Positions 50,576 through 54,403 of a DNA stretch of 64,000 nucleotides are shown in pieces. This DNA comes from Escherichia phage ES12: sequence record MN508614.1, one strand, 5' to 3'. Positions within the stretch are counted from its first letter, which is position 1. Each line of letters opens with the position of its first letter. A program made the position numbers and the translations under genes. The notes beneath the pieces are model-generated. The model saw nothing but the letters and a program-made list of their open reading frames with translations. It was not told where the DNA came from and made no database searches.

Positions 50576-51046
50576 TTAATCATGTGTCCACACCCCATCG
50601 GTATTTGACCAAAGTCGCTGATTATCTGATCCTCGCCACAGCTTTTTGGTCGGAAGATTTTTCTCATACTTCCCATCAATAATAACATCAACATATTTAA
50701 GCATTTCTAGTTGTTTAATATCTTCAAACTTATATCCTGTCCACAACCAAATGCTTTTATTGGGATAAAGATTTTTAATAGTTTGAACCACAGAGTGAAT
50801 CACGTCTCTGTTATCAGGATAGAGAGGGTCACCTCCGGTTATAGTCAATCCTTCTATATAATCATTATTCAAACATTCAATTAATTGTTCTAGTGTTTCA
50901 CCAGTGAATGGAACACCATTTCTAGCATTCCATGTTGATTTATTATAACACCCTTCACATTTATGCAAACAACCTGTAACGAAAAGAACGGTCCTGCAGC
51001 CAGGACCATTAACAAAATCGCAAGGATAAAATCTATCATAATTCAT
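50576..51046 (-). CDS. nrdG: Anaerobic ribonucleotide reductase activase NrdG (radical SAM)
   Basis: 156 aa, CxxxCxxC cluster (GCLHKCEGCYNK). Confidence 0.9.
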   Translation of the reverse strand: MNYDRFYPCDFVNGPGCRTVLFVTGCLHKCEGCYNKSTWNARNGVPFTGETLEQLIECLNNDYIEGLTITGGDPLYPDNRDVIHSVVQTIKNLYPNKSIWLWTGYKFEDIKQLEMLKYVDVIIDGKYEKNLPTKKLWRGSDNQRLWSNTDGVWTHD

Positions 51047-52860
51047 TGGTGCTTAACCCTATGCATGATTTCTTTATTTTTGCCGAGATTAAATCCGCGT
51101 TCGTTCGGATTTCCCAAATAACCACATGTTCTTCTTATTGTGTTCATCTTTTTAGGATCAGTTTCTCCACAAATAGAACAAACAAATCCGTTTTCAGTAG
51201 GAGTCATTTCATGGGTACTTCCACATGTAAAACATTTATCTACTGGCATATTAACACCAAAATAATCTAAATGTTGTGCAGCATAATCCCAGACAGCCTC
51301 AAGACCTTTTAGGTTATTTTTCATATCAGGAAGTTCAACATAAGAAATGTGACCACCTGTCGCAATGAAATGATATGGGGCTTCGCGAGAAATCTTTTCA
51401 AACGGAGTAATATTTTCTTCTACTGAAACATGGAAACTATTAGTGTACCAGCCTTTATCAGTAACATCTTTTACACTTCCATATTTTTCAGTATCAAGTT
51501 TACAGAAGCGATAACAAAGGTTTTCAGCGGGAGTAGAATACAAGCTAAAAGCAAAACCGGTTCTTTCAGTCCACTGTTTAAGACGAGCATTCATTTTAGT
51601 TAAAATTTCCTGTCCAATATCACGACCGACAAGAATATTCAATTCGTGAATACCAATGTATCCTAGGGACACTGAACTTCTACCGTTTTTAAATAACTCA
51701 ATTATGTCGTCATCAGGTTTAAGACGAACCCCGAATGCACCTTCTTGGTAAAGAATAGGAGCAACAGTCGCTTTAACTCCTTTTAATGAACTAATTCTAC
51801 ACATCAAAGCTTCAAAACATAAATCCATTCGCTCATTGAACAATTCGATAAATTTCTGTTCATTGAACTGTGTTCCAATATAAGAATCTAATGCGATACG
51901 AGGAAGATTCAGTGTTACAACACCAAGATTATTACGTCCATCAAGAATTTCATTACCAGTCGAATCTTTCCATACGCTCAAGAAACTACGGCAACCCATC
52001 GGAGAAACAGGAATAGATGAACCGGTGATAGCTTTATTGTTCTTAGCTGAAATAATATCAGGATACATTCTTTTGCTTGCGCACTCTAGAGCAAGCTGCT
52101 TAATATCATAGTTCGGATCGTCTTTATAAAGATTAACACCTTCTTCAACAAACATAACAAGCTTAGGGAAAATAGGAGTTATCCCATCACGACCAAGACC
52201 TTTAATACGATTTTTCAGAATTGCTTTCTGAATCATTCGTTCAGTCCAGTCAGTTCCCGTACCAAATGTAATTGTTACAAAAGGCGTTTGTCCGTTTGAA
52301 CTAAAGAGAGTGTTTACTTCATATTCATAAGCTTGAAATGCATCGTATACGTCTTTTTCTGTTTTAGATTGAGCATAATTCAACGCATCAGCGATTTGCC
52401 ATTTTTCTGCATCCTCAATATGTTTTGCATAGGTGCGTTTAACATAAGGAGAAAGTACTTTATCTACATTCGCAAAAGTCGTTCCGCCGTATTGATGGGA
52501 AGCAACTTGCGCAGTAATTTGCGCCATAATTGCAGTAGCAACGCCAATTGATTTAGGAGTTTCAATCTGTGCATTACCAAGCTTAAATCCGTTTTCAAGC
52601 ATTCCTTTTAAATCTACTAAACAACAATTAGTAAATGGAAGAGCAGGGGAATAATCAATATCATGGAAATGAATAATTCCGCTTTCATGCGCTTTCATAA
52701 TAAAAGACGGGACCATATTTTTGGCAATGTGTTTAGACACAATACCAGCCATAAGGTCCCGTTGAGTTGGAAAAACACGAGAATCTTTATTAGCATTCTC
52801 GTTTAAAAGGTCTTTATTAGTTTTATGAATCAATCCTTCAATTTCTTTTTCAATTGTCAT
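51043..52860 (-). CDS. nrdD: Anaerobic ribonucleotide reductase NrdD, uninterrupted
   Basis: 605 aa continuous ORF with C-terminal glycyl-radical motif RRTCGYLGNP and a Cys zinc site. Confidence 0.95.
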   Translation of the reverse strand: MTIEKEIEGLIHKTNKDLLNENANKDSRVFPTQRDLMAGIVSKHIAKNMVPSFIMKAHESGIIHFHDIDYSPALPFTNCCLVDLKGMLENGFKLGNAQIETPKSIGVATAIMAQITAQVASHQYGGTTFANVDKVLSPYVKRTYAKHIEDAEKWQIADALNYAQSKTEKDVYDAFQAYEYEVNTLFSSNGQTPFVTITFGTGTDWTERMIQKAILKNRIKGLGRDGITPIFPKLVMFVEEGVNLYKDDPNYDIKQLALECASKRMYPDIISAKNNKAITGSSIPVSPMGCRSFLSVWKDSTGNEILDGRNNLGVVTLNLPRIALDSYIGTQFNEQKFIELFNERMDLCFEALMCRISSLKGVKATVAPILYQEGAFGVRLKPDDDIIELFKNGRSSVSLGYIGIHELNILVGRDIGQEILTKMNARLKQWTERTGFAFSLYSTPAENLCYRFCKLDTEKYGSVKDVTDKGWYTNSFHVSVEENITPFEKISREAPYHFIATGGHISYVELPDMKNNLKGLEAVWDYAAQHLDYFGVNMPVDKCFTCGSTHEMTPTENGFVCSICGETDPKKMNTIRRTCGYLGNPNERGFNLGKNKEIMHRVKHQ

Positions 52861-53330
52861 TTTAAACTCTTTCTAAGCTGCTTCTTAAATGAAGCTATTA
52901 ACTGTGTTTTGGTGTCAGATTCATTATATTCAAATCCTCTTTGAAGCATCTCGGCCATCATTTCCTCTTTTCCTAAACGAGAAAATTCCTTTGATTTATC
53001 TCCAACAAAGTTAGGGTGAATATTATTTTGGGTGTAATCGGATTTTAAATAAGTAAGTAAATTTTCTAACCATTCAAGATAATCAACACCTTGTCCCTTT
53101 AATCCAGAACGATTAAATTTATGCTTCATTTGACCTTCTGCGGCATTGCAGAGATTACAAAGCAATCCACGTACCTTTCCTGCTTTTGGTCCATTTAATT
53201 CATGGTCATGATCAAGATGATTAGCTTGAACATCAGGATTTAGTTCTCGTTGGCAAATTAAACATTTACCGTTTTGTGCATCATAAAATTTCTGTTTTTC
53301 TTCTTTATATAATTTGCCAGTCAATAACAT
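52857..53330 (-). CDS. 49: Endonuclease VII gp49 (Holliday-junction resolvase)
   Basis: 157 aa, zinc-binding CLIC...HLDHDH...CNLCN; matches T4 endo VII. Confidence 0.95.
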   Translation of the reverse strand: MLLTGKLYKEEKQKFYDAQNGKCLICQRELNPDVQANHLDHDHELNGPKAGKVRGLLCNLCNAAEGQMKHKFNRSGLKGQGVDYLEWLENLLTYLKSDYTQNNIHPNFVGDKSKEFSRLGKEEMMAEMLQRGFEYNESDTKTQLIASFKKQLRKSLK

Positions 53331-53372
53331 AATAAAACCCTTACCTTAAATAGATAAGGGTATTTATTATTT

Positions 53373-53549
53373 TTAAGTATTGTAAAACATTCGATGCAAT
53401 CGTTTATACTGTCGAATCATCTTTTTAGTAGGACGAGAATAGGTTCCTACGCAAGTGGTCATATGAGGGTCCGTAGAATGTCCTTTAATAAAAAGTTTCC
53501 AAACCTTACCGCCATTTAACTTTTCAGTATAAACCAATTCGGTTTTCAT
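53373..53549 (-). CDS. 58-aa ORF whose C-terminus duplicates the Pin C-terminus
   Basis: Own translation: MKTELVYTEKLNGGKVWKLFIKGHSTDPHMTTCVGTYSRPTKKMIRQYKRLHRMFYNT; the last 15 residues parallel Pin's ...QMIRQYKRLHQMFYNT. Confidence 0.4.
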   Translation of the reverse strand: MKTELVYTEKLNGGKVWKLFIKGHSTDPHMTTCVGTYSRPTKKMIRQYKRLHRMFYNT

Positions 53550-53585
53550 TAAAATGCCTTGTCAGAAAAAGAATTTTGAGTTTTT

Positions 53586-54071
53586 TCAAGTATTATAAAA
53601 CATTTGATGCAATCGCTTATATTGCCGAATCATTTGGTCAGAAAAAGAATTTTGTGTTTCAAGCCATTCAATATATTCTGCCGCAGCTTGCATCAGGTTA
53701 CCTTCATAATCATCAATATCTTTTTTCAATGCCACTTTAGCTAATGCATATGAAATACGTTCACCTTGAAAAGCGGCTTTAGGCTTCTGAACATCTTGGC
53801 TAGTTCTCTCTACAACTTCTTCAATTTCGCCATTTTCAACGGATTCAGTATTCCACAAGCACCAATACGTAATTGGCTTATCATAGATGTTAATAATCTT
53901 TCCGTCGGAAAGTTCAATTTCAATAATTCCAGTATCAGGCTCTATATCATCTTCACATTCTTTTGTAAGTTCACGAACTTTAAAGACAGTACCTGCACTA
54001 AGTTCCGGCCAGTAATTACATAGCCCTGTATCAACACGATTAATTCTAAACCACTTATCTACTGTAATCAT
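53586..54071 (-). CDS. pin: Pin (inhibitor of host Lon protease)
   Basis: 161 aa from MITVDKWFRINRVD...; length and locus between 49 and nrdC match T4 pin. Confidence 0.7.
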   Translation of the reverse strand: MITVDKWFRINRVDTGLCNYWPELSAGTVFKVRELTKECEDDIEPDTGIIEIELSDGKIINIYDKPITYWCLWNTESVENGEIEEVVERTSQDVQKPKAAFQGERISYALAKVALKKDIDDYEGNLMQAAAEYIEWLETQNSFSDQMIRQYKRLHQMFYNT

Positions 54072-54193
54072 GTCCCATCTCCATATCAATTAAGTCATTT
54101 ATCGTTGGTTCATTATATACTGTTTCTTCATCAGTGTAAACCGGTTCTTCCGGCTCTGGCTCTACAGTTTCCCATCTAGCCGCCCACCAGGGT

Positions 54194-54403
54194 TTAACCC
54201 CGAAGCTTATTAAGTTCTTCATAATCAATCCAGGATTCTAGTCCTGATGGCAAATCAGATTCAATTTCCCAAAGAAGCTCTTCAATTTTCTGAAGACGAT
54301 CTAGTTCTTCAGCTGGAATAGTAACCATTGATGGAGTTCTTGATACACTAATATCGTAAATCATATTTACCCCAGTTTGACCATGCAATCGCCGTATTTC
54401 CAC
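54194..54403 (-). CDS. Hypothetical acidic protein, 69 aa
   Basis: Minus-strand ORF between pin and nrdC. Confidence 0.5.
   Translation of the reverse strand: MEIRRLHGQTGVNMIYDISVSRTPSMVTIPAEELDRLQKIEELLWEIESDLPSGLESWIDYEELNKLRG

Follow-up and report, generated by a model that had tools for sequence, protein, structure and literature searches.

Why should the last residues of Pin, the Lon protease inhibitor of T-even phages, recur at the end of the small open reading frame (ORF) that lies directly downstream of pin? The question arises in Escherichia phage ES12 (sequence record MN508614.1), of which a stretch of 64,000 nucleotides (nt), here called the window, was analyzed. In this window, Pin is a protein of 161 amino acids (aa) whose C-terminal 15 residues reappear almost unchanged at the end of a 58-aa ORF. 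Comparison of the locus with its relatives leads us to propose, with a probability of roughly 80%, that Pin captured its tail from the small gene, a member of the DUF7279 family, and that the locus passed from an ancestral allele (A) through a fusion allele (B) to the allele found in the window (C), at a recombination hot spot between pin and gene 49. The features on which this argument turns are the following.

53586 to 54071, minus strand: pin, encoding the Lon protease inhibitor (161 aa, ATG start), assigned by Inhibitor_I24, phrog_2167, and alignment with T4 and HY01
53373 to 53549, minus strand: the 58-aa ORF, a member of Pfam DUF7279 and phrog_3272 and the tail donor, assigned by Pfam and PHROG profiles and by its ratio of nonsynonymous to synonymous substitution rates (dN/dS)
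53586 to 53633, minus strand: tail copy 1 (captured), Pin codons 147 to 161 (MIRQYKRLHQMFYNT) plus a TGA stop, with CAA (Gln) at tail codon 10
53373 to 53420, minus strand: tail copy 2 (native), ORF codons 44 to 58 (MIRQYKRLHRMFYNT) plus a TAA stop, the codons of a predicted C-terminal helix
53637 to 53659, minus strand: D3b, the functional 3' end of the Pin core (..ETQNSFSD), one copy of the GTCAGAAAAAGAATTTTG motif
53549 to 53583, minus strand: relic of the former 3' end of pin, made up of D3a (53561 to 53583) and AAGGCATTTTAA and reading ..TQNSFSDKAF-stop

The tail repeat reported by the first-pass annotation of this DNA is real. Pin residues 147 to 161 and ORF residues 44 to 58 are identical at 14 of 15 positions, or at 14 of 16 if the preceding Gln/Lys pair is counted. 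A repeat search delimited 65 nt with 82% identity (53356 to 53420 and 53569 to 53633, at a spacing of 213 nt), and the 48-nt core of 15 codons plus stop matches at 42 of 48 positions (87.5%). In the self-comparison that had been called for, the best ungapped match scored 33, relative to 10.3 ± 1.2 (maximum, 18) in 200 first-order Markov simulations, and the repeat sequence is not of low complexity. The junction diagnostic of the window's allele was found in 113 phage genome records (at least 80% coverage and at least 95.9% identity; records not de-duplicated), including those of RB32, RB33, and SHFML-26. The worry that the repeat might be an assembly artifact, or that A/T-rich sequence produced the match by chance, can therefore be dismissed: although the region is A/T-rich and the extension of the repeat past the stop codons is weak, a score far above the simulated maximum and a junction shared by so many independently deposited records leave that explanation with a negligible probability.

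The window contains a second repeat, the GTCAGAAAAAGAATTTTG motif, of which two copies of 23 nt (53561 to 53583 and 53637 to 53659) match at 22 positions. The first-pass annotation had included this motif, as a flank, in the tail repeat. It is indeed duplicated, but its two copies bracket the Pin copy of the tail, and neither adjoins the ORF's own copy.

To which gene, then, does the tail belong? The first-pass annotation held that the Pin C terminus had been partially duplicated onto a fortuitous downstream ORF, a direction favored by the fact that Pin is the named, known gene and that the two copies are symmetrical when the window is considered alone. Profile searches point the other way. 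Pin matches Pfam PF10465 (Inhibitor_I24) with 155.6 bits (cutoff, 27; E = 9.2e-46) over residues 4 to 140 only, and phrog_2167 (E = 3.9e-62) over residues 1 to 146, so that residues 147 to 161 lie outside both profiles; residues 146 to 161 instead match the family of the 58-aa ORF, phrog_3272. The ORF itself matches Pfam PF23945 (DUF7279) over its full length (62.7 bits; cutoff, 24.5; E = 3e-17), with profile positions 1 to 53 of 53 aligned to residues 7 to 56, tail included, and it covers positions 1 to 58 of 59 in phrog_3272 (E = 3.4e-34). Its dN/dS is 0.08 to 0.26 against six homologs from Tequatro-, Dhaka-, Gapriver-, and Mosigvirus, and in 10 sampled Tequatrovirus ORFs the tail protein is invariant, all three variable codons being synonymous. 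These values mark the 58-aa ORF as a real protein-coding gene under purifying selection.

An AlphaFold2 model of the ORF (predicted local distance difference test [pLDDT] score, 81.8) contains strands at residues 2 to 9, 15 to 22, and 31 to 37 and a helix at residues 42 to 56, so that the duplicated module would be essentially this helix. The same basic helix (RPTK[KR].IR.[YF]KR.HR.FY..) ends the homologs in Dhakavirus JS10 and VR5, Gaprivervirus VR7, Mosigvirus SF, PECP20, and Gelderlandvirus UTK0003; in PECP20 and UTK0003, the gene upstream of DUF7279 is 49.1-like rather than pin. Many natural Pins, of 148 aa and of 136 aa, lack the tail. Since the DUF7279 profile and the DUF7279 homologs contain the tail, including homologs with no adjacent pin, the tail is native to DUF7279 and foreign to Pin. 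Given a conserved family under purifying selection, tailed homologs where pin is absent, and a Pin profile and natural Pins that end before the tail, Pin is a very improbable source. The exchange of a C-terminal module by recombination thus stands as a footprint, with its direction reversed.

The DUF7279 family is tiny. A profile search of 1.84 billion representatives returned nine hits, of which five short ones (29 to 61 aa) match from the N terminus, as family members do, and four long ones (493 to 1089 aa, with 4 to 7 matched stretches and E values of 1e-6 to 1e-3) look spurious. Sequence searches of the PDB revealed no relatives of either Pin or the 58-aa ORF. When the ORF model was compared by Foldseek with the PDB, the best E value was 0.27, with only weak noise resembling double-stranded RNA-binding domains or HigB, and among viral models the only match was the family's own member from Salmonella phage S16. 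Nothing on DUF7279 or on the C terminus of Pin was found in the open-access literature searched.

If the tail came from DUF7279, how did both genes come to carry it? Alignment of 21 Tequatrovirus loci from the 3' end of pin to the start of gene 49 resolved four alleles and their junctions.

Allele A (HY01, ZCEC14, pSs-1, Nami, G50, LF73P3): a 148-aa Pin (Pin148) ending in ...ETQ[I/N]SFSDRAF-stop, TAATG overlap, and intact ORF; the reference for length
Allele B (T4, e11/2, REP2, IsaacDaniel, four IMG/VR contigs): Pin residues 1 to 146 in frame with ORF codons 44 to 58, the ORF body gone; 137 nt shorter than A
Allele C (the window, RB32, SHFML-26, ZN18): the fused Pin of allele B, stop included, then six A's, AACTCAAAATTCTTTTTCTGAC-A[A/G]G[G/A]CATTTTAATG, and complete ORF; 76 nt longer than A
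Allele D (ESh17, teqsoen): Pin148 kept, ORF cleanly excised between TTTTAAT and ..TACAAT; 169 nt shorter than A

The fused Pin of allele B ends in ...SFSD[R/Q]-[M/K]I[R/Q]QYKRL[H/N]QMF[Y/F]NT-stop. This comparison across T-even genomes, which the first-pass annotation had proposed, bears out a recombination footprint but not Pin as the source of the tail, and it exposes a fact that had been overlooked, namely, that T4 Pin carries the captured tail while T4 has no donor gene. Since IMG/VR scans provided only five loci with Pin and six with the ORF, too few for an allele census, frequencies were estimated by grouping the BLAST matches among 50,697 phage records by coverage and identity. In these approximate and indirect counts, again of records that were not de-duplicated, allele C accounts for the 113 records and allele A for ~65 to 81; 425 records cover at least 80% of the fused Pin peptide, ~60 of them (in the 60 to 80% identity band) being D-type read-throughs, which leaves allele B at ~250.

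In allele C, the stretch that follows the run of A's is a copy of the old last codons of pin, ..TQNSFSD[K/R][A/T]F-stop, with the TAATG, in a relic of 35 nt. It is collinear with the true pin ends of the allele A phages HY01 and pSs-1 (GACCGAGCATTTTAATG) and ZCEC14 (GACAGGGCATTTTAATG), and in the window it retains the old TAATG stop/start overlap onto the 58-aa ORF. Now untranslated, it places a Shine-Dalgarno-like AAGG 8 nt ahead of the ORF ATG. With this relic, the two repeats of the window are accounted for: the donor and the captured copy make up the tail pair, and the live and the relic 3' ends of the Pin core make up the 23-nt pair. That the flanking motif is a duplicate of the old pin 3' end had likewise been overlooked. 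The novel junction of allele C, between ACTTGAAAA and AACTCAAAA, lies in the A-run beside a CTTGAAA heptamer that occurs in both parental contexts, the tail stop (AATACTTGAAAAT) and pin (TGGCTTGAAACTC). Two direct copies beyond chance and a definable novel junction are thus present, as expected of duplication by illegitimate recombination, and the parental, unduplicated alleles A and B are present in relatives.

The codons of the relic (53550 to 53560) have drifted, from CGAGCA to AAGGCA in the window, to AGGACA in RB32 and ZN18, and to AGGGCA in ZCEC14, and each drifted version offers a better AGG or AGGA Shine-Dalgarno sequence ~8 nt before the ORF start. Translational coupling was lost in allele C, and the improvement may make up for it.

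We propose the following order of events. Allele A, with Pin148 ending in ...ETQxSFSDRAF-stop, a TAATG overlap with a separate 58-aa DUF7279 gene, and a C-terminal helix ..KKMIRQYKRLHRMFYNT in the latter, is ancestral because in Dhakavirus VR5 the pin C-terminal gene also ends in ...FSDKAF-stop and is TAATG coupled to the DUF7279 gene, and because the family profiles agree. In a first event, a 137-nt deletion would have removed the last two codons and the stop of Pin together with DUF7279 codons 1 to 43, placing Pin residues 1 to 146 in frame with DUF7279 codons 44 to 58; the product would be the 161-aa Pin of T4 (allele B), with loss of the donor. In a second event, an illegitimate join within the A-run next to the shared heptamer would have linked a B-type left part, from pin through the tail and its stop, to an A-type segment starting inside the 3' end of pin. 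The outcome would be allele C, with fused Pin, a relic carrying TAATG, and an intact DUF7279 gene.

Several comparisons support this order. All 13 sampled Pin tails have CAA (Gln) at tail codon 10, whereas all 10 sampled ORF tails have CGA (Arg), and the Tequatrovirus Pin tails therefore all stem from a single fusion. Over the 215 nt of relic and ORF that form its right half, allele C is 4 to 7 nt away from the A-type ZCEC14 and 17 to 25 nt away from other A phages, and the left half of the C phage ZN18 differs at 2 of 120 nt from the B-type e11/2. A two-event history, from A to B by deletion and then from B and a ZCEC14-like A to C, is the most economical account of the alleles, although we infer, rather than read directly, that B preceded C.

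The reverse order deserves a hearing. Allele C could have come first, if an A-type phage had duplicated a 213-nt segment in tandem (from the 3' end of pin to the ORF tail) and then lost the 137 nt from the first copy; B alleles of the T4 type would then derive from C by recombination between the tail copies, and some A alleles, such as that of ZCEC14, by recombination between the 23-nt repeats. The geometry of the repeat pairs implies that their recombination in C would regenerate exactly B (−213 nt) and A (−76 nt), and this account would fit both the near identity of ZCEC14 to the right half of C and the CAA-AAG tail alleles common to C (ZN18) and B (e11/2). It needs three events rather than two, however, and the junction codon speaks against it: T4-type B retains the ancestral CGA, in place of which all sampled C alleles carry the derived CAA. 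Moreover, B tails resemble copy 1 up to their last 18 nt, which would confine the crossover to a very short stretch; an intermediate with two full copies of the ORF was not seen in a non-exhaustive search; and frequent homologous exchange among T-even phages suffices to explain the shared alleles. We therefore consider a C-first order unlikely, albeit worth keeping in mind.

Some observations nevertheless weigh against a history in which A gave rise to B and B to C. Comparison of the flanks, by which B and C might be ordered, is confounded by mosaicism, and C could collapse to B through its tail repeats or to A through its 23-nt repeats. In the sampled alleles, the ends of the 137-nt deletion have no microhomology. 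The allele frequencies are indirect estimates.

Is the locus equally plastic outside Tequatrovirus? Mosigvirus pin often lies between two DUF7279 paralogs, and an independent fusion has occurred there (L025:1329-1926 and L036:405-1002): a deletion at a 6-nt ACGTTT repeat adds the last eight residues of the downstream DUF7279 gene to Pin, yielding a 141-aa protein that ends in ...YLERR-FHRDFYNVY-stop. This fusion is present in a Logan contig and in the isolate vB_EcoM-ZQ3, and four records are at least 99% identical to the fusion peptide. In two separate metagenome assemblies (L026:1501-2076 and L027:1501-2076), the upstream paralog has lost its stop to a 1-nt deletion and reads through into the N terminus of Pin, giving a 191-aa DUF7279::Pin protein; in isolate genomes, most matches to this full-length fusion fell into two pieces, that is, separate genes, and the fusion was not confirmed there. 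PECP20 (L021:1001-1171) has no pin, and its single DUF7279 gene appears to combine the body of the upstream paralog with the last codons of the downstream one. This apparently chimeric gene suggests that pin was lost from PECP20 by recombination between two tail-coding repeats.

Other rearrangements of pin were seen in passing. In Dhakavirus JS10 (L005:1029-1504), pin is split and permuted, with a 57-aa gene (Inhibitor_I24 positions 88 to 136) upstream of a 100-aa gene (positions 3 to 74). Gaprivervirus VR7 (L035:456-901) has the same 57-aa C-terminal piece, followed by a 90-aa gene with no Pfam hit, and in VR5 (L024:828-1001) only the C-terminal piece of pin is kept.

Does the tail matter to Pin? 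The first-pass annotation had raised the possibility that it mediates Lon binding, which the comparisons do not support. Approximately 140 Tequatrovirus records (alleles A and D) and most Mosigvirus Pins (136 aa, ending in ...YLERRLS-stop) are tail-less. The Pin tail has accumulated four polymorphic nonsynonymous changes (M/K, R/Q, H/N, and Y/F), one fixed Arg-to-Gln change, and one synonymous change, whereas the ORF tail shows no nonsynonymous and three synonymous changes (P = 0.048, Fisher's exact test, on nine events from nonindependent sequences). In the natural isolate slur07 (L029:229-648), a premature stop in pin (...WLET-stop, CAA to TAA) removes the last 22 residues, tail included. 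Given this relaxed constraint, the captured tail is most likely a near-neutral passenger on Pin, to judge from substitution patterns. On the other side of the balance, besides the small number of events in the substitution test, the AlphaFold2 model of Pin (pLDDT, 60) is too poor to place the tail, and the published Pin biochemistry that we found used the 161-aa T4 protein only, none of it addressing Pin148 or the tail. In recent work on Lon, which asks for a structure of the complex, the inhibitor is still full-length T4 PinA (PMC8835725), and the binding and inhibition biochemistry, so far as it is cited there, concerns the 161-aa T4 protein only.

Alternatively, the tail could be an adaptive module. 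DUF7279 would then bind the target of Pin (for example, Lon, a Lon substrate, or nucleic acid) through its basic-aromatic helix, which Pin would have captured repeatedly because it improves inhibition, making DUF7279 a partner of Pin. Three independent fusions (the Tequatrovirus tail, the Mosigvirus tail, and the full-length read-through) lend this idea some weight, as do the adjacency of the two genes, their TAATG coupling in Tequatrovirus and in VR5, the status of fused Pin as the commonest allele, and a tail frame that is open in all 13 sampled phages. However, nonsynonymous changes build up in the Pin tail and not in the native one, tail-less Pins abound in both genera, and DUF7279 also occurs without pin (PECP20 and UTK0003). 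The chance of two in-frame outcomes is ~1/9, deletion between neighbors is the default mode of gene loss at this locus (allele D and locus L026), and structure and sequence searches gave no link to Lon. We regard an adaptive tail as quite unlikely.

The broader version of this idea, in which Pin and DUF7279 are functional partners and the helix is a targeting module for Lon or a shared host target, captured in Tequatrovirus and in Mosigvirus while a third lineage fused the whole of DUF7279 to the N terminus of Pin, is at least as doubtful. Recurrent fusions are equally expected from repeated deletion of neighboring small genes. If the two were partners, T4 PinA would be a two-part inhibitor, and DUF7279 would gain a function in the takeover of host proteolysis.

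How does the capture that we favor compare with known systems? The Pin of the window does not differ as a protein from T4 PinA, the E. coli Lon inhibitor that represents Inhibitor_I24 in MEROPS and Pfam: it is likewise 161 aa long, ~90% identical, and located in the same place upstream of gene 49. The difference lies next door, since T4 has lost the DUF7279 donor that the window phage retains. As for the 58-aa ORF, it belongs over its full length to DUF7279/phrog_3272 (RB32ORF078c- and RB69ORF087c-like) and has the family's usual position directly upstream of the gene 49 hairpin. The GenBank note on RB32 ORF078c states "similar to ... pin" with no explanation, and we found no publication explaining this similarity in the open-access literature searched.

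Deletions and duplications between short direct repeats are classical in T4. As in the hyperplastic regions of T4-type phages, small nonessential genes at this locus have been gained, lost, or rejoined between conserved neighbors via short repeats, with several alleles in close relatives. Those regions are described as sites of indels and modular shuffling, including that of promoter-early stem-loop (PeSL) cassettes (Arbiol et al. 2010, PMC2839356; Comeau et al. 2014, PMC4122927). In contrast to PeSL shuffling, this locus breaks within coding sequence (the 3' end of pin, ORF codon 43/44, and the stop-codon region) at microhomologies of 0 to 7 nt and hence does not use PeSL cassettes, and the product is a chimeric protein rather than an exchanged cassette. 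No sigma-70-like promoter was found on the minus strand between 53300 and 53700, and the sole stem-loop there (53337 to 53361) lies outside all junctions. The locus also resembles "Rosetta stone" fusions in that an in-frame deletion fuses a 5' gene with the 3' part of the next gene and recurs independently in a second genus. Unlike those fusions, only a helix fragment of 15 residues (Tequatrovirus) or 8 residues (Mosigvirus) is kept, under relaxed constraint, which suggests a by-product rather than a functional fusion. It is a previously undescribed instance of a known and mechanistically ordinary process, gene fusion followed by re-duplication.

Since that process is well known, the finding is more instructive than surprising. 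PinA is the phage Lon inhibitor of the textbooks. Residues 147 to 161 of the reference T4 protein fall outside the Pin family, which tells structural and mechanistic studies where the Pin domain truly ends; the tail-less Pins of 148 and 136 aa, the independent fusions, and the truncation mutant offer natural controls. The analysis also removes a tempting misreading of the 58-aa ORF as a fragment of Pin, and the locus provides a compact example of the loss, fusion, and re-acquisition of small genes in T-even phages, with four alleles whose junctions are defined to the base pair.

The setting of these genes is typical of the genus. The 1.6 kb around the repeat is 100% identical to Escherichia phage ES26, placing the window in Tequatrovirus, and 97 to 99% identical to many other Tequatroviruses, including RB32, RB33, and SHFML-26. 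Gene order is nrdD-49-(ORF)-pin-49.1, as in T4, with every gene on the minus strand. The start of pin is the ATG at 54071 (MITVDKW..., as in T4), the TTG at 54089 being the start of the mechanical ORF only. Downstream of the 58-aa ORF lie the following.

53337 to 53361, minus strand: stem-loop between the 58-aa ORF and gene 49, a terminator-like site supported by RNA folding
52857 to 53330, minus strand: gene 49 (endonuclease VII), the constant downstream neighbor in all alleles
51043 to 52860, minus strand: nrdD

The stem-loop (folding free energy, −18.1 kcal/mol; z score, −4.25) has a U-run that runs into the gene 49 ATG. It is kept in Tequatro-, Mosig-, and Dhakavirus loci, and marks the right-hand limit of all rearrangements; the DUF7279 gene always lies directly upstream of it. 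The stem-loop is consistent with the described hairpin that sequesters the ribosome-binding site of gene 49. It is preceded by AATAAATA, a 7/8 match to the T4 late-promoter consensus TATAAATA, and in Mosigvirus a perfect copy of the consensus stands at the corresponding site.

Searches of the locus with Rfam (nothing above threshold) and PADLOC (no hits) were negative. Two antisense ORFs on the plus strand that share the repeat (53394 to 53519 and 53604 to 53744) were set aside as by-products lacking family support. Upstream of pin are a 49.1-like gene and further small genes. A near-consensus sigma-70-type promoter (TTTACA-17-TATAAT, 11 of 12 positions) lies at 54112 to 54140 on the minus strand, just upstream of pin and within the 49.1-like gene. 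Farther upstream, a 69-aa ORF on the minus strand (54194 to 54403) matches phrog_3402, annotated as "antitoxin from a toxin-antitoxin system," and shows a subthreshold Pfam match to the T7 gp5.9 RecBCD inhibitor (E = 5.7e-4; 20.2 bits relative to a cutoff of 24.5).

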